DNA of 64,000 nt from Chthoniobacterales bacterium (GTDB taxonomy: Bacteria > Verrucomicrobiota > Verrucomicrobiia > Chthoniobacterales > UBA6821): contig DATEBV010000367.1 in NCBI GenBank assembly GCA_035287205.1, forward strand, positions 3,869-67,868, written 5' to 3'. Both the position numbers and the translations under genes were made by a program. This document shows positions 4,431 through 57,266 of this stretch, in pieces; positions within the stretch are counted from its first letter, which is position 1; each line of letters opens with the position of its first letter. The notes under the pieces were generated by a model. The model saw only the letters and a list, made by a program, of their open reading frames with translations. It searched no databases and was not told where the DNA came from.

Positions 4431-4608
4431 ATAAGTATTCGGCTAACTCAGGGGATAAAATTTTTCCTAAACATATTGGAATCCTCTCCTGAAGCGATTT
4501 TGAGAGTAAAAAGATTCGTTCTTTCCTTGTCACGAAGTGACCAAAAATCAACTTAAACTTAAACTTATAACTTAAACTAACTATTCGGCCTGTTGGCCGA
4601 ATAGTTAT
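4431..4608 (+). mobile_element. RE-1L copy
   Basis: ataagtattcgg...cttgtcacgaagtgaccaaaaatcaacttaaacttaaac...ctattcggcctgttggccgaatagttat. The last base overlaps the stop of the minus-strand GT-C gene. Confidence 0.8.
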
Positions 4609-6353: not shown

Positions 6354-6355
6354 AG
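6276..6355 (-). repeat. RE-2 copy (sense to the GT-C gene; supplies its ATG and the first 27 codons)
   Basis: Reverse complement reads ctATGcattgcattaacactactacatcgcagtcagatcatttggttcaaatccttcctccGAAggaagaaggatttgga. Confidence 0.85.
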
Positions 6356-6529
6356 TTTTTTACAGGAATGGTGGAAAAAGAAACCTGGGGGTGAACTTGC
6401 TTGTTTTTCTTAATTCAGTTTGAGCTTACCTTTCTTCTTCATTTTATTTCAGTTCAGTTTAAACTCACGAAGTTAGAAAATACCAGCTCAACATTTTAGA
6501 ATCTGTCAAACTGGCCATCCACAAAAAAA

Positions 6530-8250: not shown

Positions 8251-8383
8251 GTAAATATTCGGTTACACCATCGGTAAAATGTGCCAGCGAATCAACTAAT
8301 CATCAGAGTGATCTATCAAATCTTAATCAGTGTATCAACCTACAGCCTATAGCCTCTATTCGGCCTTTTTGTCGAATAGTTAC
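8251..8383 (+). mobile_element. RE-1S copy (5' end of the membrane-protein gene / intergenic)
   Basis: GTAAATATTCGG...GTCGAATAGTTAC. Homologous to 41270-41420. Directly follows RE-5 solo end 8202-8247. Confidence 0.8.
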
Positions 8384-8416
8384 CTTCACTCTTTACTTGT
8401 TGTTTTTGCCGACAGC

Positions 8417-10348
8417 ATGTTTCTCCAGCTCTGGCCTTCGATTATTTGGGCTATTCTCATTGGGATAGCCAGTACCTTTCGATGCTGGAAAGGAGCTTTA
8501 TTAACAATACTCTTGGCGCTCTTGCCGATAGTAGCAGGATACATTTACTTTGGTGTTTCTTATTCCTCTGATGAATCATTCCTCGTCGCAGGGGTCATTC
8601 CTTACAGTGATGCTTCCATGCATTTTCGACAAGCAGCGCAGATGGCAGTGGATGGAGTAACACATACAGGTATGAATGGACGATTTCTCTACCCTGCCTA
8701 TTTCTCATCACTCTTAACTATTACAGGGTTACATCTTCTCGGCGCGCAGGTTTTAGTAGGGCTTCTTTTTGCAGCGGCATTGATTGTTACTTTACGCGTT
8801 GTAGCGCGGTGGATCGGTGCTCCAGGGGCCATTGTTGTTGCATTAACTTGCTGGCTTTTTTTTAGAGCACGCTGTTCAGGCCTCGTCATGACTGAAAATC
8901 TTGGGATAACTTGTGGTCTTCTTGCTTTGACCGCGTTACTGATGGCCACTATGCGAAGGAGCCTTCTTTTGCTCTTGCTTGGAATTTTTATATTGGCCTT
9001 AGGTCTTTGTGCACGTCCAGGAGCGCTTGTTGTTTTACCATTAATGATTTTGTTTGCTGGATGGGAGGGATGGAGTAGATGGGGAAAAAGAGAGCATGAA
9101 TGTTCGGCAAGCTCATCAGTAAAATGTGTTCCAATGAATCATCAGGATCCTTCTAATTCTGCCTGCTGTAGCAGGTCTCCACTTCCCTCTTCTATCTTTT
9201 ATCTTCCATCTCCTGCCGCAGCAGCGGCATCTCCCACCTCTCTTAGACCGACTGGCCGAAGAGTCGCCTCATCTCTTATCGCAGCATTGCTCGCTGTTGT
9301 AATGATCATGGCAGCTTTCAGCTCTAATACCCTTCTTTCACATACGCTTTATCAAGGTAAGGTCATTGAGAATGGAAATTTTGCATTTACTCTTTATGGA
9401 ATGCTTACGGGAGGGAAATGGTCCGACAATCTTTCTTGGTCTCATTGGAATGCACCACTTGTGATGAAGGAGAGCCTGAAATTAATTCAAGCAAAACCAC
9501 AGCTTCTTGTCTTCGGCGCTGCCCGAGCTTACAAAGAAGCATTTTCTCGGCGTATCTTTTTTATGTTTAATCATGAGTCTCGTCTTGCCACGCTGTTGCT
9601 GCTTTTAGCTGCGGTCGGCCTTGTCGCTTTATGGAGAATGAAACCACTACGCCCGCATGCTCTTTGGTTGACGTTAATGGCTCTGGGAATTTTACTCTCA
9701 CTTCCCTTTGTTCCACCGTGGGATGCCGCAGAGAGGCCATTTGCTGTAACAGTACCTTTTCAAGCTCTCTTTGCAGGTATTGGTCTTTTTGCTTTGCTTC
9801 GAATGGCAACAGTTCATAACTTATTTTCACAGTTGCCTTCAGCAATAAAGGGCTTTGTTGCTCTGGTATTAGAGCGGTTAGTATTTTATAAGATCCAAGA
9901 AAGCGTTACTAAAGAACCAAGAGAATGGTTTTCTTTATCTTTTTTATGGGTTCTTGTGGTAATAGTTTTTTCATTAAGCGTGCCGCTGCCACTGCTCCAC
10001 AAGTTTGTTATTTTATACACTCAAGAAGAGTCTCGTCGAAGCTCTATTGAATTACATCCAGGATCGATGACTGTATTAAATGCTAAAAACTTTACTGATT
10101 TTCGTCGGCGTTTAGCGCCTTTTCTTGATCATAATCCACAAGAAGCAGTTCTTTTTTCTCTTGTTACTGATCAAACGGTATTAGGTATCAATTGGGGAAG
10201 TAAAAATTTTGATCGCTGTGCGGTTCTTAACGGTGTATCAGAGATGGTCGACTTTAAAGGATGGAGGGTCGATCAGCGACTTTGCAAGCGTTCAGATCGA
10301 CCTCCTTTGGAGGAAGGACCTGAATCAAATAATCCAACTGCGAAATAG
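8417..10348 (+). CDS. Polytopic membrane protein, GT-C-like (function unknown)
   Basis: ORF track starts at GTG 8330 inside RE-1S copy 8251-8383; the first ATG after the repeat is 8417. Many TM helices, with first-loop 'SSDESF/YSDASMHF'. Internal in-frame RE-1V at 9096-9267. The last 19 codons and the stop come from antisense RE-2 (10291-10368). Confidence 0.45.
   Translation: MFLQLWPSIIWAILIGIASTFRCWKGALLTILLALLPIVAGYIYFGVSYSSDESFLVAGVIPYSDASMHFRQAAQMAVDGVTHTGMNGRFLYPAYFSSLLTITGLHLLGAQVLVGLLFAAALIVTLRVVARWIGAPGAIVVALTCWLFFRARCSGLVMTENLGITCGLLALTALLMATMRRSLLLLLLGIFILALGLCARPGALVVLPLMILFAGWEGWSRWGKREHECSASSSVKCVPMNHQDPSNSACCSRSPLPSSIFYLPSPAAAAASPTSLRPTGRRVASSLIAALLAVVMIMAAFSSNTLLSHTLYQGKVIENGNFAFTLYGMLTGGKWSDNLSWSHWNAPLVMKESLKLIQAKPQLLVFGAARAYKEAFSRRIFFMFNHESRLATLLLLLAAVGLVALWRMKPLRPHALWLTLMALGILLSLPFVPPWDAAERPFAVTVPFQALFAGIGLFALLRMATVHNLFSQLPSAIKGFVALVLERLVFYKIQESVTKEPREWFSLSFLWVLVVIVFSLSVPLPLLHKFVILYTQEESRRSSIELHPGSMTVLNAKNFTDFRRRLAPFLDHNPQEAVLFSLVTDQTVLGINWGSKNFDRCAVLNGVSEMVDFKGWRVDQRLCKRSDRPPLEEGPESNNPTAK
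9096..9267 (+). mobile_element. RE-1V (172-nt variant), in frame inside the membrane-protein gene
   Basis: Degenerate termini atgaatgttcgg...ccgaagagtcgc. The interior matches copy 54868-55039 (ttctaatt.tgcctgc...ctccacttcc...catctcccacctctc). Confidence 0.7.
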
Positions 10349-10368
10349 TAGTGCAATGCAATGCATAG
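10291..10368 (-). repeat. RE-2 copy (antisense; supplies the C-terminal 19 codons and the stop of the 8417-10348 gene)
   Basis: ttcagatcgacctcctttggaggaaggacctgaatcaaataatccaactgcgaaatagtagtgcaatgcaatgcatag. Confidence 0.8.
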
Positions 10369-10604
10369 TTTGTTCAGAAGCCGCCGAACAGATATTTTGG
10401 CCTTGTAGTCTGTAGTTTGTAGTCGATAGCCTATAATTCAGAACTCATCTCCGAAGGGGTGTGTGAAGGGTTATGTGACTTTTAGGTATTCAAATCCTTC
10501 CTGCTTCGGAGGAAACGACTTAGTCAGCAAATCGAATTTAAGTATTTACGATCAAATGAAGGTGCCGCATTGTTTGCGACCAAGGGCGGCAGCGTGCCTT
10601 GGTG

Positions 10605-10680
10605 CTATTAAACACATGATTACTTCGCTGCCCAATCATTTAATTCAGATCCATCCTCCGAAGGAGGGAGATCTGAATGC
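10605..10680 (+). repeat. RE-2 copy upstream of galE
   Basis: ctattaaacacatgattacttcgctgcccaatcatttaattcagatccatcctccGAAggagggagatctgaatgc. Confidence 0.8.
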
Positions 10681-10717
10681 CTACGAACTAAGAACTAAGA
10701 ACAGGCATTGTGCAACA

Positions 10718-11800
10718 ATGCCTATTATACTTGTTACGGGAGGTTCCGGGTACATTGGTTCCCATACGTGTATTGCTCTTGATAAGGCTGGTTATACACC
10801 TCTCATCCTCGATAATTTTAGCAATAGTAACGCATCGGTTCTTGATCGCATGGAAGTACTCATGAATCATCGGCCATTATTCATTAAAGGAGATGTGCGG
10901 GATGAGGCATTGCTAAAGAAAATTTTCCAAGAGCATGACTGTACTGGTGTAATTCATTTTGCGGGATTAAAGGCCGTAGGAGAATCGATTGCTCAACCAC
11001 TCGAATATTACGATGTGAATGTCACAGGATCGCTCTCACTGTTGATGGCTATGCAGTATTCTGGTGTCAAAAGGCTCATTTTTTCTTCTTCTGCTGCTGT
11101 CTATGGAAAACCTGAATCTCTCCCTATTAAGGAAAGTGCAACTCGATCGACGGTGAATCCCTACGGTCGTTCCAAACTGATGGTTGAAGATATTCTCGAA
11201 GATTTTTACTATGCAGATCCCTCTTGGAGTATTGCACGCCTTCGCTATTTCAATCCCATAGGAGCTCATCCAAGTGGACTCATTGGAGAAGCTCCTCAAG
11301 GAGTGCCTAACAATCTCATGCCTTACATTACCCAAGTTGCCGTTGGCCTTCGCGAGAAACTTTCTGTTTTTGGAGGAGATTATCCAACGCATGATGGCAG
11401 CGCGGTTCGTGATTATGTTCATGTGATGGATTTAGCGGAGGGACATGTTGCGGCACTCAATTGGTGTCAGAAAGGTTCTCAACAGTCAGGAGGGATGTTA
11501 ACTGTTAATTTAGGAACAGGAACTGGCTCTTCTGTTTTGGAAATAGTTCGAGCTTTTGAAATGGCCAGTGGGAAAAAAATTCCCTATGAAATAGTAGCTC
11601 GCCGTGCTGGAGATATTGCTGAGTGTTGGGCTGATTCTACTGATGCGGCTGAAATATTGCATTGGAAAGCCACACGCAGCCTGGAAGAAATGTGTAGAGA
11701 TAGTTGGCATTGGGAACAGCAGAAGAGAAAAGAGGAAATAGCCACAAAAGAACACAAAGAAACACAAAAAAGAAATTTGGCTATGAACTTGATTGATTAG
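10718..11800 (+). CDS. galE: UDP-glucose 4-epimerase
   Basis: 'ILVTGGSGYIGSH' Rossmann motif directly after M at 10718; 'YGRSKLMVE' is the YxxxK motif. ORF-track start 10463 only adds RE-2-derived sequence. The C-terminal about 22 codons (EEIATKEHKETQKRNLAMNLID) and the stop are encoded by RE-5 copy 11734-11965. Confidence 0.9.
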   Translation: MPIILVTGGSGYIGSHTCIALDKAGYTPLILDNFSNSNASVLDRMEVLMNHRPLFIKGDVRDEALLKKIFQEHDCTGVIHFAGLKAVGESIAQPLEYYDVNVTGSLSLLMAMQYSGVKRLIFSSSAAVYGKPESLPIKESATRSTVNPYGRSKLMVEDILEDFYYADPSWSIARLRYFNPIGAHPSGLIGEAPQGVPNNLMPYITQVAVGLREKLSVFGGDYPTHDGSAVRDYVHVMDLAEGHVAALNWCQKGSQQSGGMLTVNLGTGTGSSVLEIVRAFEMASGKKIPYEIVARRAGDIAECWADSTDAAEILHWKATRSLEEMCRDSWHWEQQKRKEEIATKEHKETQKRNLAMNLID

Positions 11801-11965
11801 TTCAGCTAAGCTGTTTCGAAGCTGTTGGAACTCTATATTTCCACAGGATCTTAATTGCTACCTCCTTGTTTTTTACGATAGCTAACATTCTTTATTTTGA
11901 GTTCTTAAATTCTTTTTTTGTGTTCTGTTCTTTTGTGTTCTTTTGTGTTCTTTTGTGGCTATTTC
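11734..11965. repeat. RE-5 full-length copy (galE-rmlA spacer)
   Basis: Termini GGAAATAGCCACAAAAGAACACAAAGAAACACAAAAAA / TTTTTTGTGTTC...TTTTGTGGCTATTTC. The interior is homologous to 30141-30401 and 54516-54750. Confidence 0.85.
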
Positions 11966-11987
11966 TTTTCTTTTTTAAAATCTATTT

Positions 11988-13650: not shown

Positions 13651-13655
13651 GAGTT

Positions 13656-13727
13656 TTCAGATTCCCTCTTTCGGAGGAAGAATCTGAAGTAAATAGTCGA
13701 ACTATGAGTTGTAGAATAAAGACATTG
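13656..13727 (-). repeat. RE-2 copy (intergenic, rmlC-wzm)
   Basis: ttcagattccctctttcggaggaagaatctgaagtaaatagtcgaactatgagttgtagaataaagacattg. Confidence 0.7.
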
Positions 13728-13827
13728 TTGCTTCGCTTTCTTTCCTTGTCACGAAGTGACCAAAAATTAACTTAAACTTAAACTTATAACTTAAACTAAC
13801 TATTCGGTCTGCAGGCCGAATAGTTGC
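13728..13827 (+). mobile_element. RE-1L, 3' part only
   Basis: cttgtcacgaagtgaccaaaaattaacttaaacttaaac...ctattcggtctgcaggccgaatagttgc. Ends 8 nt before the wzm ATG. Confidence 0.75.
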
Positions 13828-30131: not shown

Positions 30132-30140
30132 GCGTTCCAA

Positions 30141-30401
30141 GGAATAGCCACAAAAGAACACAAAGAAACACAAAAAAGAAATTTGGCGATGAATTTGATT
30201 GATTAGTTAGCCTAAGCTGTTTCGTAGCTGTGGGTGCTCTATGTTCTCGCAGGATCTCAATTCACTACTCTCTTATTTTTCACGATAGCGAACATTTTTT
30301 ATATTGAGTTCTTAAATTCATTAAAGAATTTTTATAAAAATTCTTTTTTTGTGTTCTTGTTCTTTGTGTTTTTTTGTGTCCTTTTGTGGCTATTTTCTTC
30401 C
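30141..30401. repeat. RE-5 full-length copy (hddC-gmhA spacer)
   Basis: GGAATAGCCACAAAAGAACACAAAGAAACACAAAAAAG ... internal palindrome AAGAATTTTTATAAAAATTCTT ... CCTTTTGTGGCTATTTTCTTCC. Confidence 0.85.
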
Positions 30402-30482
30402 TTGTTTCTGTTACTTCAATTCAGTTTAAGCTCACTAAAAATCCATTTTCAAAATCAGTTTACCTCCAGGCAGAATCTACTT

Positions 30483-31082
30483 ATGACTTACACAATAAAA
30501 CATCTCAACGAAGCATCAGAAATTATCTCACAAATAGATTCTAATCGGTGTGAACAATGCATCAAAGAGTTGGTGGACCTTCGAGAACGTGGAGGGCGGC
30601 TTTTTATTTTGGGTGTTGGGGGCAGTGCTGCCAATGCCTCGCATGCTGTGAATGATTTTCGTAAGATTGCTGGCCTTGAGGTTTATGCTCCTACTGATAA
30701 CGTGTCGGAGCTTACGGCGCGTACCAATGATGAAGGGTGGGCTACGGTCTTTGTTGAGTGGCTTAAAGGATCAAGATTAAATGAAAAAGATACAGTGTTG
30801 GTTCTTTCTGTGGGTGGAGGAAATCTTGAACAAAATGTTTCGCCTAATTTAGTCAAAGCAGTTCAACTTGCAAAGCATGTTGGGGCAAGAGTTCTTGGTA
30901 TTCTTGGTAAAGATGGAGGATATACTGCAACGGTGGCAGATGCATGTGTTATTATTCCAACAGTAAATCCCAATAATATTACGCCACATGCAGAGGCATT
31001 TCAAGCAGTGATCTGGCATCTTTGGGTTTCCCATCCAGATCTTAAACTCCATCAGACAAAATGGGAGAGTGTTAAACTATAG
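30483..31082 (+). CDS. gmhA: Phosphoheptose isomerase (SIS domain)
   Basis: 'LGVGGSAANASHAVNDFRK' and 'VLSVGGGN' are SIS/GmhA motifs. ATG 30483 is the first start after RE-5 copy 30141-30401; the ORF-track start 30234 lies within the repeat. Confidence 0.8.
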   Translation: MTYTIKHLNEASEIISQIDSNRCEQCIKELVDLRERGGRLFILGVGGSAANASHAVNDFRKIAGLEVYAPTDNVSELTARTNDEGWATVFVEWLKGSRLNEKDTVLVLSVGGGNLEQNVSPNLVKAVQLAKHVGARVLGILGKDGGYTATVADACVIIPTVNPNNITPHAEAFQAVIWHLWVSHPDLKLHQTKWESVKL

Positions 31083-31128
31083 GCTATAGGCTACAGGCCC
31101 AAATGGCTGTTCAGTAGCTTCTTAAAAA

Positions 31129-31210
31129 CTATGCAATGTATTTACACGACACCTTCGCAGCACAATCATTTGGTTCCGATTTTTCCTCCGAAGGAGGGAA
31201 ATCTGAACGC
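31129..31210 (+). repeat. RE-2 copy supplying the gmhB start
   Basis: ctATGcaatgtatttacacgacaccttcgcagcacaatcatttggttccgatttttcctccGAAggagggaaatCTGaacgcc. Confidence 0.85.
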
Positions 31211-31769
31211 CTGCAAACCAGCTATTTTTCTAGATCGAGATGGGACTTTAAACGCACAAGTGGTTAGAGAGGGGAAGCCTTATCCTCCTCAAAGCGTAGA
31301 AGAATTTAGGTTGTTAGATGGTGTTGCAGCAGCATGTCGAGACCTTAAAGCAGCAGGTTTTTTGCTGGTTGTCGTGACGAATCAGCCTGATGTTGGTCGT
31401 GGAGATCAATCATGTACAGTTGTTGAGGCGATGCATATCAAGTTACAGCTCTTGGTTCCTGAAATAGATCGTATTGAAGTTTGCTATGATTCAGGGCGAG
31501 GAGATTTTAGTCGACGAAGAAAACCTGAAATAGGAATGTTAGAAGATGCTTCGGATGCTCTTAATATCGACCTTACATCTTCTTGGATAATTGGTGATCG
31601 CTGGAGGGATATCGATTGTGGAAAGAAGGCTGGCATTAAAACAATTTTTATCGATTATGGCTATGTAGAGGAGTTAAGATATCAATCAGATTTTACTGTT
31701 AAGTCATTGGCTGAGGCTGCGCAGATTATAATCGTTCAGACCAACATAAGCAAAGCTGCAAAAAATTAA
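31131..31769 (+). CDS. gmhB: D,D-heptose 1,7-bisphosphate phosphatase (HAD)
   Basis: 'AIFLDRDGTLN' (HAD motif I), 'VVVTNQPDVGRG' and 'IGDRWRDIDCG'. The only ATG (31131) lies in RE-2 copy 31129-31210. An in-frame CTG at 31203, 5 nt after a GGAGG, would give a canonical-length N-terminus. Confidence 0.8.
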   Translation: MQCIYTTPSQHNHLVPIFPPKEGNLNACKPAIFLDRDGTLNAQVVREGKPYPPQSVEEFRLLDGVAAACRDLKAAGFLLVVVTNQPDVGRGDQSCTVVEAMHIKLQLLVPEIDRIEVCYDSGRGDFSRRRKPEIGMLEDASDALNIDLTSSWIIGDRWRDIDCGKKAGIKTIFIDYGYVEELRYQSDFTVKSLAEAAQIIIVQTNISKAAKN

Positions 31770-32201: not shown

Positions 32202-32207
32202 TTTAAT

Positions 32208-32281
32208 CCTTTCTTGTCACGAAGTGACCAAAAATCAACTTAAACTTAAACTTTCAACTTAAACTTACTGCAAAGCAGTAA
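32208..32281 (+). mobile_element. RE-1L fragment with a substituted terminal hairpin
   Basis: cttgtcacgaagtgaccaaaaatcaacttaaacttaaac, then TTACTGC-AAA-GCAGTAA in place of the CGG hairpin. Confidence 0.6.
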
Positions 32282-32285
32282 AAAA

Positions 32286-32366
32286 CTATACAATGCATTC
32301 ACACTATACTTCTGTAGCACAATCATTTGGTTCAGGACCGTCCTCCGAAGGAGGGGGGCTGAACGC
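32286..32366 (+). repeat. RE-2 copy supplying the transaldolase start
   Basis: ctatacaATGcattcacactatacttctgtagcacaatcatttggttcaggaccgtcctccGAAggaggggggCTGaacgc. Confidence 0.85.
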
Positions 32367-33081
32367 TTGCCTTAATAATCTTAAAATAGCTATTTATGCT
32401 GATGGCGCTGATAAAAAAGGTATTATCGACCTTTATCATCAACCTTATATTAAAGGATTAACAACAAATCCTACACTCATGCGTAAAGCAGGAATTACTA
32501 ATTATGAAGGTTTTGCTCGTGAAATTCTTGAAGTAGTAACGAATAAACCACTTTCATTAGAAGTTTTTTCAGATGAGTTTCAGGAAATGAAGAGGCAGGC
32601 GCTCAAGATTAATTCATGGGGAGCGAATGTTTATATTAAGATACCGATTACAAATTCTCATGGAGAATCTTCGCTGTCTTTGATTCAAGAACTTGGAAAA
32701 GAAGGGATGAAACTCAATATCACAGCGTTACTAACGGTTCAACAGGTAGAAGGAGTTGCTCAAGTATTAAATCCTGAAGTTCCTTCTGTGGTTTCTGTAT
32801 TTGCTGGTCGTATTGCTGACACTGGAGTTGATCCTATGAACATTATGAGATCCGCAAAAACTATTCTTAAACAGCAGCCTAAGGCAGAACTTCTTTGGGC
32901 TTCTGTCCGAGAGGTTTTTAATATTATGCAGGCAGAAGAATCAGGTTGTGACATAGTCACTGTGCAGCATGATATTCTAGCAAAAGCTGCAACTATGCTC
33001 GGGAAAGATCTCACAGAACTTTCTTTAGAAACAGTACAAATGTTTGCAAGAGACGCTATAGAGTCAGGTTTTTCTTTGTGA
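32293..33081 (+). CDS. Transaldolase / fructose-6-phosphate aldolase family protein
   Basis: 'GLTTNPTLM' and 'YIKIPIT' (active-site Lys region) in a short Tal/Fsa-type protein. ATG 32293 lies in RE-2 copy 32286-32366, with an in-frame CTG at 32359. Confidence 0.75.
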   Translation: MHSHYTSVAQSFGSGPSSEGGGLNACLNNLKIAIYADGADKKGIIDLYHQPYIKGLTTNPTLMRKAGITNYEGFAREILEVVTNKPLSLEVFSDEFQEMKRQALKINSWGANVYIKIPITNSHGESSLSLIQELGKEGMKLNITALLTVQQVEGVAQVLNPEVPSVVSVFAGRIADTGVDPMNIMRSAKTILKQQPKAELLWASVREVFNIMQAEESGCDIVTVQHDILAKAATMLGKDLTELSLETVQMFARDAIESGFSL

Positions 33082-34493: not shown

Positions 34494-34536
34494 TTAGAAC
34501 TTGACTTTATCGCGATTAAGTGACACTGTTACACCT

Positions 34537-34791
34537 ATGGTTGCTAATTTATCAATAAGTATTAAAGAACTTCATGCTAAGACTGGAGCGCAAGTACGTC
34601 GAGTGAATAAGAGTCGAAGTCCGATTACAGTAACAGATCGAGGAAAGCCGATTGCTGTTTTGATAGCGCCGAATTTTATTGCAGCTAATCCTCGACATCG
34701 TACTTTACTCCCAGAATATGCTAAGCTGTTGTCAAGATCCTTATCCAACGATGTGCTTGATGATCTTGATGCCATTCGAGGAGATCGTTAA
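34537..34791 (+). CDS. Type II antitoxin, Phd/YefM-like (VapB-type partner)
   Basis: 'ISIKELHAKTGAQVRRV...PITVTDRGKPIAVLIAP' is a typical Phd/YefM N-terminus. Immediately precedes a PIN gene. ORF track uses TTG 34501. Confidence 0.6.
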   Translation: MVANLSISIKELHAKTGAQVRRVNKSRSPITVTDRGKPIAVLIAPNFIAANPRHRTLLPEYAKLLSRSLSNDVLDDLDAIRGDR

Positions 34792-34811
34792 ACCCGGTAT
34801 TTAAACCGCCC

Positions 34812-35246
34812 ATGTGTTTTTGTGATACATCTACCTTAGCAAAATATTATGTGCCGGAGAAGGAGTCATCATCGGTGCGCTTGCATCTTGATCAAGAAAA
34901 TCAGGTAATGGTTTCTGAACTTGCTCGTGTTGAGTTAATGGGAGTATTTCATCGGCGTTTGAGAGAACGCAAATGGAATAGGGATGAGTTTATGGCAGTT
35001 GTGCAGCAATTTTCTCATGATGATATTGAAGGACATTGGAGTTGGCTTCCTTTAGATGGAACTATTGTAGAGCAGGCTAGTAAGATTTTTATTGCATTGC
35101 CAGATAGTGTGTTTTTGCGAAGCTCCGACTGTCTTCATTTGGTAACGGCATTGTATTATCGAATTAAGGAAATCTATACTTATGATGCTCATCAAATTCA
35201 GGCTGCCTCTGTTCTGGGACTCAAGCCAATTTCAATTTCAGTGTAA
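34812..35246 (+). CDS. vapC: PIN-domain toxin (VapC-like)
   Basis: N-terminal 'CDTSTLAKYYVPE' carries the first acidic residue of PIN, with a later 'SSDCLHLVTA' motif. 144 aa and paired with the antitoxin. Confidence 0.65.
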   Translation: MCFCDTSTLAKYYVPEKESSSVRLHLDQENQVMVSELARVELMGVFHRRLRERKWNRDEFMAVVQQFSHDDIEGHWSWLPLDGTIVEQASKIFIALPDSVFLRSSDCLHLVTALYYRIKEIYTYDAHQIQAASVLGLKPISISV

Positions 35247-36883: not shown

Positions 36884-37060
36884 ATGATAATAGACCATCC
36901 CATTCCAACGTTAGTAGAAGAACCTGTAGAAACAAGTGACTCAATCTATACAGTTGAGTTGATAGCCGCTCTTGAGGAAGCAGATGCTGCAATTGATCGA
37001 GGAGAATTTGTGACTTTTGAGGAAATTAAGAAGGAATTTGCTTCATGGGTTACGAAATAG
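36884..37060 (+). CDS. Small antitoxin of ParE/RelE cassette 1 (58 aa; below the ORF-track cutoff)
   Basis: Manual translation: [58 protein letters not shown]. Paralog of 38739-38921 and 40034-40216. Overlaps the toxin start by 16 nt. Confidence 0.55.
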   Translation: MIIDHPIPTLVEEPVETSDSIYTVELIAALEEADAAIDRGEFVTFEEIKKEFASWVTK

Positions 37061-37347
37061 TTTTTTCTGCTCAAGCCCAGCATGATTTGAGAGAGATTGA
37101 ATATTATATTTCTTTTGATTCTCCTCAAGTAGCTAAGCGTTTTGGTCAGCAGTTGATTAAAAAGACAGATATGCTTGGCTTACATCCAGAAATAGGACGT
37201 ATAGTTCCTGAAGTTGGTAACCGTATTGTGCGAGAAATCATTGTTGGAAATTATCGTATTATGTACAGAGTGAATGTTTCAAAAAAGCAGGTTCGGATTT
37301 TGAGCTACTGGCATGCTGCTCGAGGTACTCCCGATGTCCGTTATTAA
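37045..37347 (+). CDS. ParE/RelE-family toxin (cassette 1)
   Basis: 100 aa. 'A..DL.EI..YI....P..A.RF' followed by '...GR.VPE......REI.VGNYRI.Y.V....V.IL...HAAR' fits the ParE/RelE pattern. Lies between gmd and fcl. Confidence 0.7.
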
Positions 37348-38477: not shown

Positions 38478-38676
38478 GTAAATATTCGATTAACCCAGTC
38501 GATAAAATTTGTCTAGCCGTGTAAGAATCCTTTACTGAAGTGATTTCGAGAGCAAAAAACTAGGTGCAAATAAAAATGTCGCTTCACTTTTTACATTGTT
38601 ACGAAGTGACCAAAAATCAACTTAAACTTAAACTGAAAACTTAAACTTATATTCGGCCTGTTGGCCGAATATTTAC
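38478..38676 (+). mobile_element. RE-1L full-length copy with a perfect 8-bp TSD
   Basis: 199 nt. TIR GTAAATATTCG / CGAATATTTAC. TSD TGGTAGAA at 38470-38477 and 38677-38684. The paralogous site near 39971-39990 is empty. Confidence 0.92.
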
Positions 38677-44910: not shown

Positions 44911-45621
44911 TTAAGAAGTGACTACTGGTTGCTCAGGCTGATGATGAGAAAAGAATTTTTCGATCTCGTGAAGCATACGTTGAATATGACGGTAACTTTT
45001 AACAGGGACCATACGGGCATAACTTTTCCAAGGATTTCCCCATTCTAAAATTTCAATAGTAACACGACGTACACCCCATTCCCTCATGGCAGTTCGTGTT
45101 GGTTTATAGAGGTCGATGGTATTAGTACCAGCAAGAGCCCATCCATAGTCATCGACAATAAAGATTTCTCGGGTGGCACGAATACGGAAGCGTGTTCCAG
45201 CAGGCCAGCGTGCCCAGTCTGCTGCAGCACTGTTGATAACGCCGCATTGTAAGCGCGTACCAAGGGCAGAGCATTGCCCATAACGGAGATGGTCGCATTC
45301 CGTGGAAGTGTAGGCTGTGGTTCTAACTTTTTGTATAGCTGCACGGCGCAATGGCTTCTCGTAAGGAGGAAGTTGATGATGGGCACAGCCAGTTAAGAAG
45401 AAGGCCAAGAGCAATATCTGTAAGAAAAGATAAGGCTTCAGTAAAGGGTGAAGAGTAAAGGGTAAAGGGTCGGAAGCGTTCAGACCCCCTCCTTCGTAGG
45501 AAGGATCTGAACCAAATAATCGCATTGCGAAGGAGTGGTATAAATAGAGCCTGTTCGAAAGTAATCCAGTTTTGAAAATGGATTTTAATTTTTGTTTGGT
45601 ACCTAGCTTAGCTACAGACAT
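44911..45621 (-). CDS. 3D-domain (MltA/RlpA-like) lipoprotein; start uncertain
   Basis: Lipobox 'FFLTGC'. 'TTAYTS...AADWARWPAGTRFRI...FIVDDYG...NTIDLY' fits the 3D domain. The upstream part of the ORF is RE-2 copy 45475-45547 (ATG at 45525-45523, in-frame CTG at 45483-45481). Confidence 0.6.
   Translation of the reverse strand: MSVAKLGTKQKLKSIFKTGLLSNRLYLYHSFAMRLFGSDPSYEGGGLNASDPLPFTLHPLLKPYLFLQILLLAFFLTGCAHHQLPPYEKPLRRAAIQKVRTTAYTSTECDHLRYGQCSALGTRLQCGVINSAAADWARWPAGTRFRIRATREIFIVDDYGWALAGTNTIDLYKPTRTAMREWGVRRVTIEILEWGNPWKSYARMVPVKSYRHIQRMLHEIEKFFSHHQPEQPVVTS
45475..45547 (-). repeat. RE-2 copy at the 5' end of the 3D-domain gene
   Basis: Reverse complement reads ctatttataccactccttcgcaATGcgattatttggttcagatccttcctacGAAggagggggtCTGaacgct. 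Confidence 0.8.
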
Positions 45622-45794
45622 GTAACGAGTAACGAGTAAAGGGTAACGAGTTTATTTTCTTGCCTGCGGCAATTGATTTAAAAAATTGCTCACTATAACA
45701 AATTAATTTTCGATAAAATGGTATTTTTGAGAATTTATATTTTTCTGAACTTACCCATTCTATTTTTTTGATAAAAATGGCCAAAGTCCAGTTA

Positions 45795-45868: not shown

Positions 45869-45953
45869 CTATATATGTCATCCATTCACACTACACCTTC
45901 GCAGTCCGACCATTTAGTTCAGATCCTTCCTCCGCAGGAGGGAGGATCTGGAG
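45869..45953 (+). repeat. RE-2 copy supplying the start of APC permease 1
   Basis: ctatatATGtcatccattcacactacaccttcgcagtccgaccatttagttcagatccttcctccgcaggagggaggatctgga. Confidence 0.85.
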
Positions 45954-47296
45954 GCCGATCTCCCAGTAAAACAAAGCCTAAGGTAGGGCTCTTAACCTGT
46001 ATTTTTCTTGTGATGGCTATCATGGTGGGTAATGGGATCTATACAAGTCTTGGAATGCAGCTTTTGAATATTTCTAGCGGATTTACGATTCTTTCTCTTT
46101 GGGCATTGGGTGGCATTTGTGCTCTTTGCGGAGCTCTTTCATATGCAGAATTGGCATCGCTCATGCCTCACTCTGGGGGAGAGTATTACTATCTGTCAAA
46201 AATCTATCATCCAGCGCTTGGCACGATGGCCGGTTTTATTGCACAGATAGCTGGCTTTATTGCGCCAATTTCCTTAGCTAGTATGGCTTTTGGAAAATAT
46301 CTTCAGGCATTCTTTCCTTCAACTAATCCGATGGTTTCTTCCATGGTCTTGGTAACAGTGATCACGGGAATGCATCTTGTAACGCTAGGATTTAGCGCTG
46401 TGTTTCAAGATATCATTACAGGTTTAAAATTTCTTCTGATAGGGGTTATTCTCTATCTTGGGCTTCGTCATGCTACAATATCACCGACGATTTTTCTTCC
46501 TTCGATGGTAGGAATGAAAGAACTTTTTTCTCCAAGCTCTGGAGTTGCTTTAATTTTTTGCTTCTATGCTTATTCAGGATGGAATTCTTCCACCTATATT
46601 GCCGATGATGTTACTTCTTCTCATCGTACGGTTGGACGCTCTCTGGTGATTGGAGCTATTCTGGTTATTGTGATCTATATGCTTATGAATGCTATTTTTC
46701 TCATGGCTGCACCAGTGGGAGAGTTGCGCGGTGTTTTGGATGTCGGTCGTGTGGTGGCCACACATCTTTTGGGTCAAGAAGGCGGTCGTATGATGACAGT
46801 AATGATTGCCTTTGGACTTGTTGCTGGAGTGAGTGCGATGGTTTGGGTCGGGCCTCACATTACGCAGATGATGGGAAGAGATCTTCCTGCCTTGCGTTGG
46901 TTAGCTCCTGTTTCCAAAGGGAATGTTCCTCTCCATGCGATGCTTATTCAGTATATTCTGGTAATGATTTTGCTTTCGACGGGAGCTTTTAAAATGGTCC
47001 TTGTAGCGACTCAATTTCCTATCATTTTTTGTGAATTCTTAGGAGTTATTGGAGTGATTGTTTTACGCTTTCAGCATCGTAAGATCTACGATCCTTCCAT
47101 ACCAAAGAAAGATCGCCAAGGTTTTCGTTGTCCTCTCTATCCCTTGCCTCCTCTCTTTTTTGCAGTGATCAGCATCATGGCTCTCACATACACAACGATC
47201 ACCAATCCTCTGGAAGGGATCGTTGGGATTGCGCTGATTATTATTGCTATTGCTCTCTACCCTCTCCTCCATCGAGAGAATGCAATAGAGGAATAA
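45875..47296 (+). CDS. APC-family amino acid permease (paralog 1, RE-2-derived N-terminus)
   Basis: 473 aa with 12 TM helices. Colinear with the paralog at 47703-49004, most positions identical by eye. The first about 27 codons (MSSIHTTPSQSDHLVQILPPQEGGSGG) come from RE-2 copy 45869-45953. Confidence 0.75.
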   Translation: MSSIHTTPSQSDHLVQILPPQEGGSGGRSPSKTKPKVGLLTCIFLVMAIMVGNGIYTSLGMQLLNISSGFTILSLWALGGICALCGALSYAELASLMPHSGGEYYYLSKIYHPALGTMAGFIAQIAGFIAPISLASMAFGKYLQAFFPSTNPMVSSMVLVTVITGMHLVTLGFSAVFQDIITGLKFLLIGVILYLGLRHATISPTIFLPSMVGMKELFSPSSGVALIFCFYAYSGWNSSTYIADDVTSSHRTVGRSLVIGAILVIVIYMLMNAIFLMAAPVGELRGVLDVGRVVATHLLGQEGGRMMTVMIAFGLVAGVSAMVWVGPHITQMMGRDLPALRWLAPVSKGNVPLHAMLIQYILVMILLSTGAFKMVLVATQFPIIFCEFLGVIGVIVLRFQHRKIYDPSIPKKDRQGFRCPLYPLPPLFFAVISIMALTYTTITNPLEGIVGIALIIIAIALYPLLHRENAIEE

Positions 47297-47316
47297 TTGC
47301 TAACGTAGTCCAAGCA

Positions 47317-47483
47317 GAAAATTAACAGGAATGGAAAGGATGGAAGAGATAGCAGAGGGTAAAATTAAGAAAACAAGTCATCAGAGTTCTTATTAAATTA
47401 TTCTAAGAGTTTAATACCTTGTTGTGCTTACTCAATTGTTGCTATCCCTTCCATCGCATTCGTTCTTGTGATTTTTCATTAAC
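47317..47483 (+). repeat. RE-6 variant copy
   Basis: gaaaattaacaggaatggaaaggatggaagagatagcag ... gctatcccttccatcgcatt...tttttcattaac. Confidence 0.65.
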
Positions 47484-47510
47484 TCCTCTCTCGGTTTTAA
47501 TATACGGCAA

Positions 47511-47660
47511 GAAATGCGATGGAAGGGATGGCGGAGACTTAAATTTAAAATGGTGTGTATAAAATTAATGAGTCCACAAAATTAAATAATGATTAGATCC
47601 TTCATTATTCAGTATTCTTTTTCTGCCATCCCTTTTATCCCTTCCATCCTTGTGAATTTT
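47511..47660 (-). repeat. RE-6 copy (reverse orientation of 2266-2419)
   Basis: gaaatgcgatggaagggatggcggag...ctgccatcccttttatcccttccatccttgtgaattttt aligns along its length with the reverse complement of 2266-2419. Confidence 0.8.
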
Positions 47661-47702
47661 TTTTAGATAGGTTGGTAGTTACCCTAATTCTACGAATTGT
47701 AC

Positions 47703-49004: not shown

Positions 49005-49053
49005 GCTTAAACTGCATTGAAGTATTGTTATTCTAACATTACCGTAATAGACA

Positions 49054-49321
49054 GAAATTCACCACACCAGTCATTCAGTCCTCGCTACGCAACGACTGAA
49101 GTAAAGGTGACAGTTTGTTTTAGTATGTTTACTTAACTGATAGTTGAACAATTAGTAGTAAGGAGGGTGAAGAATTTTTATAGCGTTCTCAGTAACTTAA
49201 TTGAACTTAATTGAAAGCTATTTTTTGATTTTTTTTCAGGAAAGACAACGATAAAAACAAAAACCTTATTTTACTTCAGTCGCTGCGCAGCAGAGACTGA
49301 ATGACTGGTGTGGTGAATTTC
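49054..49321. repeat. RE-7: 268-nt element with inverted termini of about 55 nt
   Basis: GAAATTCACCACACCAGTCATTCAGTCCTCGCTACGCAACGACTGAAGTAAAGG ... CCTTATTTTACTTCAGTCGCTGCGCAGCAGAGACTGAATGACTGGTGTGGTGAATTTC. Confidence 0.85.
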
Positions 49322-49432
49322 TGCGTATTTGAGGAACGTTATCAGTCACAAAACTAGCACTAATTATCGGGTAGATATTGCTATGGTTTTTACCACCCCT
49401 CCCTTTACCTTTCACTCTTTACTTCTTCTTTC

Positions 49433-54505: not shown

Positions 54506-54515
54506 GCAAGAAGAA

Positions 54516-54750
54516 GGAAGAAAATAGCCACAAAAGAACACAAAGAAACACAAAAAGAAACTTGGCGATGAACTAGATTAATTAGCTAGCCTAAGCTGTT
54601 TTGCTGCTATTAACGCTCTATATTGAAGCAGGATTTCAATTCCTGGCCTCATTGATTTTCATAATATTGAACATTCTTTATCTTTAATTTTTATAAAAAT
54701 TCTTTTTTTTATTTTTGCTTCTTTGTGTTCTTTTGTGGCTATTTTCTTCC
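54516..54750. repeat. RE-5 full-length copy (AddB-like to GH spacer)
   Basis: GGAAGAAAATAGCCACAAAAGAACACAAAGAAACACAAAAAG ... TTCTTTTGTGGCTATTTTCTTCC. Confidence 0.85.
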
Positions 54751-57266
54751 GGCAATTACTTCATTTCAGTTTGAATTTATATCAACGCTCATTACTCGTC
54801 TGGCCATTCCTTGTGGTTGTTTTCTGCTATTTGCTAATTCCCTCACAAGTACTAGCTCTCAACGGTAGTAAATATTCGGTAAACTCATCTGTAGAATGTG
54901 CTCCAACGAATCAGCAGAGTTCTTCTAATTGTGCCTGCAGCAACAGCTCTCCACTTCCATCTCCTGTCGCAGCGACGACATCTCCCACCTCTCACCTACC
55001 ACCTACCACCTCTATTAGGCCTGTTGGTCGAATAGTGACAGGCATTGTCACTATTGATCTCGATCATCCGAAGGCAATTTTGGATGCTTCTCAAACTCTT
55101 GGTGCAGGAATTGATGGGCATAAAGAGGGAGAGGGGGAAACAATTTTTTCATTAGCCAATATTCGCCGTATGCGTTCAGCTGGTTTAAAACCACTTGCTT
55201 ACCGCCTTCGGACTGAATTAGGGGTGGAAGCATGGCATTGGAATCCTCAAGGAACTTGGAGTGATCCTTCTCACCAGCAAGGGTATTGGCTCTCATCGAT
55301 TCATTCTAAAAAACCACTTCTTGAAAGTTATGGTTATCGACTACCTCGTCGCGGAGATACTCTTGACGAAGCTAATAACGATGGCTATTCACGACTTGAT
55401 GATGGTAACTCTAAGACTTTTTGGAAAAGCAATCCTTACCTTACTTCTCATTATACAGGAGAACCTGATAGGAAACATCCCCAGTGGGTGGTGCTCGATT
55501 TTGGAAAGCCTGTTTTTATTAATGCGGTCCGTCTTCATTGGAGAGAACCCTACGCAAAAAAATTTCGTATTCAATTTGCCAATGAAGGAGCTGTTTACTT
55601 TGGGCATCATCGTCCTTGGCATGATTTTCCTCAGGGAAAAAGAGAGCAAGGTCATGGAGGAGAAGAATTGCTTTCTTTAGGAGAGGTCAAGAAATTCGGG
55701 AAAAGAATACCTATTCGTTTTCTTCGCGTTCTGATGACAGAGAGTTCAGCAACAGCTCCTCCTTCGTGTCACGACCCACGCGACATGATGGGATATGCTA
55801 TCCAAGAAATTGAAGCAGGAGAAATAACTCGCGACGGAGTTTTTCATGATCATGTCATTCATCGTCCTGATAACCAGCAGACGCTCGTTTATGTTTCATC
55901 AACGGATCCATGGCATCGTGCCTCAGATAGGGATGAAAAAACCGAGCAACCAGGTTTTGATTTAATTGTTTCTTCTCGTCTTGCAGAAAAAAATGCCATC
56001 CTTTGGTCACTTCCAGTATTGTATGATACTCCGGAAAATAGTGCTGCTGCAGTACGATTCTTGCAACAACGCGGATATCTCTCTCAAGGAGTGTCAAAAT
56101 TAGAACCTGTTTTAAAAGTCGCTGAGGCTGATGAAGGGCGAGGAGTCGGCGGCGCGCAGAAGTTGAGTGTACAGCAGCTACTCGATGCTTCGAGCACCGG
56201 CGCGACGAAGCCATTCGCAGCTGCAGTAGACTTTGAAAACAGGTTCTTAGAACTTGGTGAAGAACCCGATGGGCAGCGCATAGATCCTAATGACTTTGGA
56301 GCTCTCTACTGTCAAACAGCACGACTTATTCGTAAGATAGATCCTTCAATTTCTTTAGGAGGTCCTAGTTTTGTCACCATTGATTGCCAACCAAACGATA
56401 CCACCTACCGCTTTGATCATCGTTCTTGGCTTCAGCGATTTTTCAAACAACTTCGAAAAAAAAATCAAAAGAAAGACTTTCAGTTTCTTACTTTTGAGTG
56501 GTATCCCTTCGACGATATTTGCCTTGATCCAGCGTCCTTACTTACTCAAGAACCGCTCCAACTTCAGCAAGCCGTTAAGCGAATTCGTCGTGGAGGAGTT
56601 CCTCCCTCCATGCCACTCATGATTACCGAGTATGGGTATTCTGTCTTTGAAGGACAACCTGAGGTGGAGCTTGCAGCAGCACTACTCAATACGGATATTA
56701 GTGCTCAATTTCTCTTATTAGGAGGAAAGACTTCTTATCTTTATGGGTATGAACCAAATTCTTTAGCCTGCCTTTATGGGAATTCTTGGGGAAACCTGAT
56801 GATGTTTCTTCAGAATAAAAGAGGAGGAATCAAAGCCTCTCTTCCTACTTATTATGCTGCACGTCTCTTAACTCAAGAGTGGATGGCTCCTTTAGCAGGA
56901 ACTCATCAAATCTATCCAACAGTAACAAATCTCAAAGACAAGAAGGGAAGATCTTTGGTAACAGCCTATACCCTTCAGCGTCCAGATCATCAGTGGTCAC
57001 TTCTAATCGTCAATAAAAGCCCTGATCAAGCTTGTTGTATTCAATGTCATTTTCTACATGCTGATCGAAAAGTTCCTAGTCCATGGAAAAGTCCTAGGGA
57101 TCTTTATTCCTATTCTCCAGTTCAATACCAATGGCATGTTGATGGACCGCATGGGCATCCTTCTCGCAATCGAGAGCCAGCTCACTCTTCGCTCAAAGAA
57201 GAAGATCCAATAATAATACTTCCATGGTCTATTACGGTCATTCTATTCGGGCAACAGGCCGAATAG
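54723..57266 (+). CDS. Secreted discoidin (F5/8 type C)-domain protein with C-terminal TIM-barrel glycoside-hydrolase-like region
   Basis: 'FWKSNPY...PQWVVLDFGKPVFINAVRLHW' is discoidin-like. 'LELGEEPDG', 'FEWYPF' and 'MITEYGYS' resemble GH clan-A acid/base and nucleophile strands. TTG start lies inside RE-5 copy 54516-54750. In-frame RE-1V (54868-55039) and RE-3 (56102-56247). The TAG stop lies inside an RE-1L terminal hairpin. Confidence 0.55.
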   Translation: MCSFVAIFFRQLLHFSLNLYQRSLLVWPFLVVVFCYLLIPSQVLALNGSKYSVNSSVECAPTNQQSSSNCACSNSSPLPSPVAATTSPTSHLPPTTSIRPVGRIVTGIVTIDLDHPKAILDASQTLGAGIDGHKEGEGETIFSLANIRRMRSAGLKPLAYRLRTELGVEAWHWNPQGTWSDPSHQQGYWLSSIHSKKPLLESYGYRLPRRGDTLDEANNDGYSRLDDGNSKTFWKSNPYLTSHYTGEPDRKHPQWVVLDFGKPVFINAVRLHWREPYAKKFRIQFANEGAVYFGHHRPWHDFPQGKREQGHGGEELLSLGEVKKFGKRIPIRFLRVLMTESSATAPPSCHDPRDMMGYAIQEIEAGEITRDGVFHDHVIHRPDNQQTLVYVSSTDPWHRASDRDEKTEQPGFDLIVSSRLAEKNAILWSLPVLYDTPENSAAAVRFLQQRGYLSQGVSKLEPVLKVAEADEGRGVGGAQKLSVQQLLDASSTGATKPFAAAVDFENRFLELGEEPDGQRIDPNDFGALYCQTARLIRKIDPSISLGGPSFVTIDCQPNDTTYRFDHRSWLQRFFKQLRKKNQKKDFQFLTFEWYPFDDICLDPASLLTQEPLQLQQAVKRIRRGGVPPSMPLMITEYGYSVFEGQPEVELAAALLNTDISAQFLLLGGKTSYLYGYEPNSLACLYGNSWGNLMMFLQNKRGGIKASLPTYYAARLLTQEWMAPLAGTHQIYPTVTNLKDKKGRSLVTAYTLQRPDHQWSLLIVNKSPDQACCIQCHFLHADRKVPSPWKSPRDLYSYSPVQYQWHVDGPHGHPSRNREPAHSSLKEEDPIIILPWSITVILFGQQAE
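54868..55039 (+). mobile_element. RE-1V (172-nt variant), in frame inside the discoidin/GH gene
   Basis: GTAAATATTCGG...CTATTAGGCCTGTTGGTCGAATAGTGAC. Encodes KYSVNSSVECAPTNQQSSSNCACSNSSPLPSPVAATTSPTSHLPPTTSIRPVGRIV. Confidence 0.85.
56102..56247 (+). repeat. RE-3 long variant, in frame in the discoidin/GH gene
   Basis: Termini AGAACCTGTTTTAAAAGTC / GACTTTGAAAACAGGTTCT. Encodes EPVLKVAEADEGRGVGGAQKLSVQQLLDASSTGATKPFAAAVDFENRF. Confidence 0.85.

Follow-up and report, generated by a model that had tools for sequence, protein, structure and literature searches.

A dispersed miniature transposon at gene 5′ ends in a Chthoniobacterales genome, and its probable role as a source of start codons and N-terminal leader peptides

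We analysed a 64,000-nucleotide stretch of DNA (hereafter the window) from a Chthoniobacterales bacterium (contig DATEBV010000367.1) for RE-2, a repeat that recurs at the 5′ ends of genes, including gmhB in the operon gmhA-gmhB-tal. RE-2 makes up the right-hand ~110 nt, on the side next to the gene, of a longer non-autonomous transposon, a miniature transposable element with inverted repeats (MITE), the complete form of which is mostly 165–190 bp long. The best explanation of its distribution, and one that we consider probable, is that this MITE supplies the start codon and a leader peptide to the genes to which it is fused. This explanation draws together the anatomy of the element, its target-site duplications, its orientation and position bias, the continuity of its reading frame with that of the downstream gene, and the loss of native starts.

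The conserved core of RE-2 comprises 112 nt, TTGCTGTTCAGTAGCTTCTCAACAAACT-ATG-CA-ATG-CATTTACACTACTACTTCGCAGTCCGATCATTTGG-(TTCAGATCCTTCCTCC-GAA-GGAGGGGGATCTGAA)-CGCCTAC, with a sharp and constant 3′ end and a variable 5′ end. Read from the left, the complete element begins with GTAACC, followed by a hairpin (GTTCAG..CCTCC-TTCG-GGAGG..CTGAAC), TATA, a run of heptamers, (GGCTACA)n, then GGTCGAAAC and a stretch poor in G, AGGCTGTTCAGTAGCTTCTCAACAAACT. A pair of ATGs, spaced by 5 nt and lying in differing frames (ATG#1 and ATG#2), precedes ~40 nt without stop codons, and the right end is formed by a second, inverted copy of the hairpin, terminating in CTGAACGC(C/T)TAC. The two termini thus constitute hairpin-shaped terminal inverted repeats (TIRs; GTAACCGTTCAG...CTGAACGCTTAC): the left end GTAACCGTTCAG... 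matches the right end when the latter is reverse-complemented (GTAAGC/GTAGGC GTTCAG...), and the match spans the ~35-nt hairpins. The first-pass annotation, made from the window alone, had described a module of ~80 nt; the repeat is real, but the module lacked the remainder of the core and, on the left, the second hairpin and the heptamer run.

Complete copies measure 153–224 bp; their only open reading frames (ORFs) are read-through frames and none contains a transposase gene. At least six of the 20 complete copies are flanked, at identical offsets, by 8-bp target-site duplications, three of which are perfect (ATTATGGA, CAACCATG and TCCACGCC) and three of which match at seven of eight positions (GAACTAA[A/C], AAAGTC[A/G]C and AACACCT[G/A]); the duplicated octamers have no common motif. 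The hairpins of the window copies fold with predicted energies of −16.6 to −27.1 kcal/mol (z-scores −2.6 to −5.2), whereas RNA of the whole element folds no better than shuffled sequence (z-scores −0.7 and −0.9). As had been anticipated in the first-pass annotation, the arms are conserved as pairing partners, with 1537 paired cells against 1491 ± 4 in shuffles and double changes of T-A to G-C and of C-G to T-A. A sigma-70-like match (TTTACA/TTCACA-17-AATCAT) lies inside RE-2, downstream of the ATGs (window 31141–31169 and 32298–32326), although the number of such matches is not above that in shuffles. Because the 3′ end is constant while the 5′ end varies, a group II intron fragment or other retroelement was also considered; this candidate was rejected, as there is no Rfam intron match and the element has TIRs and 8-bp duplications.

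Copies were located with nhmmer, the coordinates of which are used for them, and a profile hidden Markov model (HMM) built from 68 near-full copies. Additional loci came from a scan of JGI metagenomes with an IUPAC pattern of the core, which yielded 58 loci from one project (Ga0155638) and one Rifle contig; on rechecking with nhmmer, the pattern loci from outside Ga0155638 proved not to be RE-2, with the Rifle contig (L055) as the sole exception. The main census set consists of the window and 51 loci (506 kb in total), with eight further loci kept as a hold-out. The HMM search found 125 non-overlapping copies in the 506 kb and 22 further copies in the hold-out loci, a dispersed multiplicity typical of a MITE. 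Within the window, alignment and HMM search gave eight clear copies, as the first-pass annotation had counted, and one degenerate copy beyond them; the core motif CCTCCGAAGGAGG occurs nine times at up to two mismatches, compared with 0.72 occurrences expected from shuffles. The Ga0155638 loci have no unique sequence in common with the window but have many repeat families in common with it, at 72–88% identity, and these contigs are probably other parts of the same or of a sibling Verrucomicrobia genome. The window's RE-2-fused ORFs recur in three independent assemblies; the assembly with the matching NCBI record is GCA_001830205.1 (contig MIDR01000113.1), a metagenome-assembled genome from the Rifle aquifer, named Verrucomicrobia bacterium RIFCSPHIGHO2_12_FULL_4...

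Searches further afield returned little. A scan of GTDB representative genomes with the core pattern gave 28 single chance matches in unrelated taxa, none of them from the RE-2 host lineage, and a search of representative proteins with the 30-residue element peptide gave only two unrelated tandem-repeat proteins. Among the Rfam covariance models run against the window there is no family for RE-2, only two tRNAs reaching the gathering score, and we found no report of an RE-2-like element in Verrucomicrobia in the literature.

The copies in the window, with the landmarks of the gmhB copy, are as follows.

31074–31214 (nhmmer 31106–31213), + strand: RE-2 filling the whole gmhA-gmhB spacer, sense to gmhB
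31076–31100, + strand: heptamer repeats of the gmhB copy
31106–31214, + strand: core of the gmhB copy
31131–31133 and 31136–31138, + strand: ATG#1 and ATG#2 of the gmhB copy
31173–31208, + strand: hairpin of the gmhB copy, with the CTG at 31203–31205
32279–32369, + strand: RE-2 at the transaldolase gene (tal), sense, with its hairpin at 32330–32364
45870–45957, + strand: RE-2 at the gene for APC permease 1; ATG at 45875, PPKEG frame, exit frame 2
45474–45548, − strand: 5′-truncated RE-2 within the 5′ part of ORF 44911–45621; consensus ATGs lost
6270–6370, − strand: RE-2 at the gene for a GT-C / PMT-like glycosyltransferase; ATG at 6353, PPKEG frame
10613–10684, + strand: 5′-truncated RE-2, 35 nt upstream of galE
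10284–10474 (nhmmer RE-2 part 10285–10391), − strand: complete 191-bp MITE with left hairpin, heptamer repeats and RE-2
13652–13729, − strand: RE-2 in the spacer between rfbC and ABC-2, antisense to the two genes and fused to neither
10488–10525, + strand: solo hairpin of this type, degenerate, with a TTCG loop

The six copies that had been placed at the 5′ ends of genes are real, gene-proximal and sense to the adjoining gene; two of the genes lie on the minus strand and their copies do likewise. For gmhB, tal, the GT-C gene and the APC permease gene, there is no ATG, GTG or TTG between the element and the conserved domain, in agreement with the earlier proposal that the element ATG is the sole option for these four, whereas galE keeps its own ATG at 10719. 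In the gmhB copy, ATG#1 opens the 212-aa gmhB ORF, and the element also reaches the gene on its other side: the TAG of gmhA (31080–31082) comes from the left edge of RE-2 and the last two codons of gmhA are element-derived as well. In the tal copy, ATG#2 at 32293 opens a 262-aa ORF in the SSEGG frame. The GT-C copy is followed by the first transmembrane helix directly after the junction. The truncated copy in ORF 44911–45621 contains a new in-frame ATG at 45525 (− strand), where the consensus reads GCAGTCCGATC. The protein encoded by this ORF continues from RE-2 into a lipoprotein-like LLLAFFLTGC signal; the label of a ‘3D’-domain gene that it had been given does not hold, as Pfam finds no domain in it.

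The complete MITE is flanked by the 8-bp target duplication GCGACTTT (10276–10283) / GTGACTTT (10475–10482), and ORF 8330–10348 enters its right end and stops inside it, with ~21 element-encoded C-terminal residues. The region 10276–10690 is a nest of elements, made up of this MITE, the TTCG-loop hairpin, which is older than the MITE inserted beside it, and the 5′-truncated RE-2.

The relation of RE-2 to genes was assessed by sorting the census copies according to ORFs of at least 100 codons that cross their ends. Such an ORF exits the 3′ end of the element in the sense orientation, with no stop between (category A), in 79/125 copies, and exits the 5′ end in the antisense orientation (category B) in only 3/125; a sense-strand ORF enters the 5′ end (category C) in 3/125 and an opposite-strand ORF enters the 3′ end (category D) in 15/125. 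The excess of sense over antisense fusions (79 vs 3; binomial p = 4e-20) was reproduced in the hold-out loci, with 15 of 22 copies in category A and none in category B, and bears out the earlier proposal of a mobile element lying in sense at gene 5′ ends; the genome-wide test of orientation suggested there is thus strongly positive. By crude gene calls, 94 of the 125 copies have a co-oriented gene no more than 300 nt downstream. The fused ORFs correspond to real genes, 19 of 20 tested having an NCBIfam match; the families include Mpl/MurC, HemC, GatB, MurG, RimO, PyrB, CysC, CobA, Gnd-like, GmhB, Tal, GlnII, ProA, CarA and GspE-like proteins, among others. Empty sites reconstructed from copies with intact duplications place the insertions at or just upstream of a native ATG or GTG: the ATG lies within the duplicated octamer at one locus (L061), the GTG follows the octamer by 0 nt at another (L059), and at a third (L066) the insertion is ~45 nt upstream.

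The frame relationships indicate that RE-2 supplies start codons and N-terminal peptides to the genes fused to it, a role that is supported in silico. Amongst the copies that retain the ATG region and are thus testable, 45/55 have an in-element ATG in the frame of the gene with no stop before the gene (21/22 in frame 0 and 24/28 in frame 2, relative to the element end). The same combination of ATG and open frame is found in 6/60 unused frames and 13/72 non-genic copies (~10–18%), and against a null of ~18% the gene-frame value has p = 1e-24. Since the unused and non-genic frames are open so rarely, openness is not a general property of the element, and continuity belongs specifically to the frame that the gene requires. 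The frames 0/1/2 of the fused genes are also unevenly used (30/9/40; chi-square p = 7e-5), and the depleted frame 1 is the one blocked by the TGA of the element (in CTGAAC). The nine frame-1 genes have a start of their own, which in six of the nine is 4 nt past the element end (e.g. L109:10040, L033:2252 and L036:1491). In these copies the mini-ORF of the element would stop ~12 nt before the native start, and the two could be connected by termination–reinitiation coupling.

The junctions fall close to where the fused proteins would normally begin. Positions 1–7 of the NCBIfam profiles align 0–10 residues past the junction, mostly 0–5, and the junction is at the native N-terminus in Mpl/MurC, GatB, PyrB, RimO, GlnII, ProA, GmhB, Tal, an FAD enzyme, CobA and MurG. 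About 50 of the 79 fused genes have no canonical start within four codons past the junction, and for GmhB, Tal, GatB, PyrB, GlnII, an SDR and the FAD enzyme there is none between the junction and the conserved N-terminal motifs. Translation from the element would add a predicted N-terminal extension of 22–29 residues, the sequence of which depends on the frame: ...HLVQILPPKEGG from ATG#1, ...SFGSDPSSEGG from ATG#2, and ...IWFRSVLRRRG from ATG#1 in the 19 copies that lack 1 nt at column 36. The exit frame is switched by a ±1-nt polymorphism of the hairpin's 3′ arm, and the predicted element-encoded and junction peptides include ...SDHLVQILPPK, EGGSER and SFGSDPSSEGGDLNAY; the patterns M..I.TT.SQ..HLV.I.PP.EG and FGS.PS.EGGGLNA, reported for the window copies in the first-pass annotation, are correct. 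The last of these frames, in which the hairpin is read as a basic peptide (WFRSVLRRRG; the basic frame), precedes hydrophobic signal-peptide or transmembrane N-termini in seven of nine cases, compared with 9/60 for the other frames (Fisher p = 3e-4), a link that would be expected if the leader is translated.

A different reading of the same copies is that RE-2 is a passenger in 5′ untranslated regions, that translation of the genes begins, from native or non-canonical codons, at the junction or beyond it, and that the through-ORFs are a by-product of a stop-poor element. There is precedent, in that Di Nocera et al. (2013, PMC3733652) judged many repetitive extragenic palindromic (REP) sequences assigned by prediction to ORF N-termini to be extragenic in fact; native starts persist at galE and at several copies whose target duplications are intact; and ~27/79 fused genes do have a canonical start within four codons past the junction, and may use it, although ~17 would be expected by chance. 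The contrast between gene frames and all other frames, the avoidance of the TGA-blocked frame, and the seven protein families just listed that lack any canonical start before their N-terminal motifs are all difficult to reconcile with a passenger, and we consider this reading unlikely.

The mechanism proposed in the first-pass annotation was of another kind: the hairpin was suggested to sequester a Shine–Dalgarno (SD)-like GGAGG by pairing it with the anti-SD-like CCTCC, with switchable initiation at a CTG 4–5 nt further on. A conserved CTG does follow GGAGG at a distance of 4–6 nt and is in frame in four of the six copies that had been listed, and the hairpin is stable, with conserved pairing. 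Public gene calls are divided: in the NCBI record gmhB (188 aa) and tal (240 aa) begin at the post-hairpin CTG (31203 and 32359), giving gmhB a homologue-like spacing, whilst ENA and Logan gene calls start gmhB (212 aa) and tal (262 aa) at the element ATG (L002 versus L001/L003). Against such a switch, the native genes of this host do not use SD sequences. Among 134 genes with an unambiguous ATG and no RE-2 nearby (window and Ga0155638 loci), an SD-like tetramer is present at −16..−5 in only six (4.5%), below the background of 11%; G is depleted at −10..−1, down to 5–10%, and positions +4/+5 are A-rich. The context before the element ATG, CTTCTCAACAAACT-ATG, likewise has no SD and fits the G-poor pattern of the host.

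The CTG itself is in the gene's frame in 30/79 copies, which is the chance level, and in the commonest class, frame 2 (40 copies), neither CTG nor any other near-cognate codon follows GGAGG in frame. All but one of the 22 frame-0 copies, moreover, keep the upstream ATG in a frame that is open, which initiation at the CTG would not require, and the same hairpin stands at the other terminus of the element with no gene after it. Because the host is SD-less, the CTG is in frame at chance and the hairpin is a transposon terminus, we reject the switch and the CTG start, which have very little probability left to them. The hairpin is the terminal inverted repeat of the element; in fused genes it lies inside the ORF begun at the element ATG, where it is plain coding sequence and not a ribosome-binding switch, and no downstream start makes use of a sequestered SD. 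Insertion targeted to SD sequences was considered separately and rejected, the host genes and the operon of a relative (below) both being without them.

A comparison with a syntenic relative (L123) shows what the gmhB region looks like without the element. The relative has the same operon, GFO-GHMP-NTP transferase-gmhA-gmhB-tal-glycosyltransferase (GT), and no RE-2. Its gmhA-gmhB spacer is 12 nt long and contains MALRPAIFLDRDG, followed by the ATG of gmhB, and its gmhB and tal overlap as ATGA (MNPLHRLNIDLYADGAD), a spacing of −4 nt. In the window, gmhB and tal are each without the first three codons present in the relative, and 60 GmhB homologues agree on an N-terminus that starts 1–4 residues before RPAxFLDRDG. 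The compact operon of the relative is expanded in the window, for example by ~350 nt that separate gmhA from the NTP-transferase gene and ~610 nt that separate tal from gmhB. An analogy to integron attC sites was also considered and rejected, since the genes sit in a conserved operon order common to the relative without the element.

The explanation that we favour, that the MITE provides the start codon and leader, can be set out as follows. In a compact genome, with operon spacers of −4 to ~20 nt, tolerated insertions would be those at a gene start or a few codons beyond it. Sense copies would persist by virtue of what the element carries with it: a site for initiation, namely an ATG whose surroundings are unstructured and poor in G, as at the host's SD-less starts, and a reading frame that stays open across the right hairpin and on into the gene. 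The gene would then be translated from the element ATG with an extension of 22–29 residues, and its native start would decay or be lost. The frame between ATG and gene is kept by the choice of two ATGs, by the subfamily with the deletion at column 36, and by the ±1-nt polymorphism of the 3′ arm. An antisense copy at a start site would not keep the downstream gene translated. Left-hand deletions would explain the variable 5′ ends and also the gmhB copy, with its lost spacer and first codons. The element may also have a structural preference for start regions as targets. A stronger form of this explanation, which we hold to be evenly balanced between right and wrong, is that the MITE family has evolved into a host-tolerated ‘portable first exon’, with an SD-independent start and three leader frames, the basic one being preferentially kept before secreted or membrane proteins, and that it has become the sole start codon of dozens of genes (the housekeeping genes gatB, murG, mpl/murC, pyrB, proA, glnII and gmhB among them).

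Several points weigh against the explanation by a start-supplying MITE, in addition to the 27 genes with a nearby canonical start. The target flanking the gmhB copy, that is, the spacer and first three codons, is missing rather than displaced, so simple insertion is insufficient for this copy and an additional deletion is needed. Between strictly tandem genes the orientation bias is more modest, at 29 sense vs 13 antisense copies. No autonomous transposase with RE-2 ends turned up in the DNA sampled (~0.6 Mb), in which TIR pairs 0.5–3.5 kb apart enclose only host genes (GspE-like, GyrB, TPR). The association of signal peptides with the basic frame is post hoc, and the assignment of the Ga0155638 contigs to the same or a sibling genome comes from common repeat families only. 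Initiation at the element ATG in vivo, finally, is deduced wholly from sequence statistics, as is the selective reason that we suggest for the bias.

The ends of the element raise the alternative of a REP or REPIN (paired REP) type of repeat, that is, GTAG-tagged hairpins moved by a REP-associated tyrosine transposase (RAYT), which stabilise or punctuate operon mRNAs and whose fusions to coding sequence are incidental. On the opposite strand, the right end reads GTAGGC plus a palindrome, and the left end GTAACC plus a palindrome. GTAG-tagged REPs, with stems of 5–13 bp, are abundant in the verrucomicrobium Opitutus terrae, and GTAG ends often donate TAG stops (Di Nocera 2013, PMC3733652), which fits the 15 category D copies; the ratio of 72 G-U to 38 A-C pairs in the RE-2 stem further hints at an RNA-level constraint on the sense strand. 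GTAG REPs/REPINs resemble RE-2 in having a GTAG-like tag by a palindrome, inverted pairs, TAG-stop donation and some copies at ORF N-termini. RE-2 differs from them in its 8-bp duplications, its longer stems and its ~100 nt of conserved non-palindromic body with ATGs. Its ends consist of GTAG or GTAA, the fourth base being variable, 2 nt, and a stem of ~16 bp. Duplications of 8 bp at fixed offsets are not a product of HUH / IS200-type transposition, and a RAYT mechanism, which makes no target duplication, is disfavoured because of them; nor was a RAYT gene found in a limited search. As a REP/REPIN origin would in addition leave the ATG and frame statistics unexplained, we think it improbable, slightly more so than the passenger reading.

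Repeats that join an ATG to genes of the host have so far been curiosities, with scattered 5′ extensions in some other families; RE-2 is notable for its scale, its multi-frame design and its SD-less host. The closest parallels are Neisseria REP2 and the Borrelia plasmid repeats IR-A and IR-B (Parkhill 2000; Morelle 2003), which provide a promoter, a ribosome-binding site (RBS) and an ATG fused to downstream ORFs (Delihas 2011, PMC3184786). Like RE-2, these are dispersed (120–150 bp), lie directly upstream of genes in the sense orientation, and have internal stem-loops and an ATG fused to the ORF, a feature that RE-2 displays in its 79/125 sense-fused copies and, with an in-frame in-element ATG, in 45/55. 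By its description, however, REP2 has no TIRs and carries a promoter and RBS, whereas RE-2 has TIRs, 8-bp duplications and no SD before its ATG, in an SD-less host. REP2 numbers ~26 copies with 14 genes affected, compared with at least 125 copies of RE-2 in 0.5 Mb, the majority of which are fused to genes, housekeeping genes among them. With its TIRs and its lack of an SD, RE-2 is not a member of the REP2 family.

Other known repeats share individual features with RE-2. Rickettsia palindromic elements (RPEs; Ogata 2000) survive in-frame inside protein-coding genes (PMC10969869); both they and RE-2 are palindromic mobile repeats that stay in frame in genes and are presumably translated. Internal RE-2 copies of this RPE-like kind occur in HemC (L068:7053–8171, − strand), which has an N-terminal RE-2 and a second, internal in-frame fragment, and in a TPR protein (L033:2422–5115, − strand), with three partial copies in tandem in its N-terminal region. 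RPEs are, however, mostly internal and CGTC-tagged, and have not been reported to supply start codons, whereas RE-2 has a GTAR tag, no in-frame insertion with a CGTC tag, a mostly N-terminal location and an ATG. Mycobacterial interspersed repetitive units (MIRUs; Supply 1997) are small intercistronic operon repeats with co-oriented ORFs that overlap the neighbouring genes (PMC3184786), and they follow the same logic of continuing translation across an inserted spacer; the MIRU has a separate mini-ORF, a length of 40–100 bp, ~40–50 copies and 4-nt direct repeats, whilst the ORF of RE-2 is fused to the downstream gene. In structure RE-2 is an ordinary MITE. The classical bacterial MITEs Correia / NEMIS, Nezha, Chunjie and ERIC are like RE-2 in size, TIRs, duplication, copy number, strong RNA fold and occasional ORF fusions, but for none of them has it been reported that most copies are fused to gene 5′ ends by an element-borne start.

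RE-2 is one of several repeats in this DNA. At least six other dispersed families, of 200–360 nt and with 72–88% identity to Ga0155638 copies, fill intergenic regions of the window at the following positions.

30139–30438
11729–11978
54515–54775
47315–47675
45541–45745
49045–49353
38478–38674
4432–4606
451–656
2257–2443

A 63-nt repeat containing AAGTTTAAGTTRATTTTTGGTCACTTCGTGAC is present at 13739–13801 and 32207–32269 (90% identity) and also just upstream of RE-2 copies in three other loci (L059, L068 and L033); it may be another module or a separate element. The polysaccharide/heptose cluster of the window further contains toxin–antitoxin genes, namely those for a PhdYeFM antitoxin with a PIN toxin and for a ParE toxin (34501–35246 and 37045–37347).

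With most of more than 125 copies fused, genes of central metabolism and cell-wall synthesis appear to depend on a start codon from the element. RE-2 points to a transposon route into a compact SD-less genome, in which the element would imitate the initiation context of the host and stay open in several frames. Its fusions amount to a natural experiment on how far proteins tolerate N-terminal extension, and they also pose an annotation problem, as pipelines pick either the ATG or the CTG, and homology-based start calling will mis-annotate RE-2-fused genes. If the explanation given here is true, the cassette would be a compact, SD-independent translation-initiation module and a possible tool, and, should its stronger form hold, a mobile element would have become an obligatory part of the translation-initiation landscape in a free-living bacterium.

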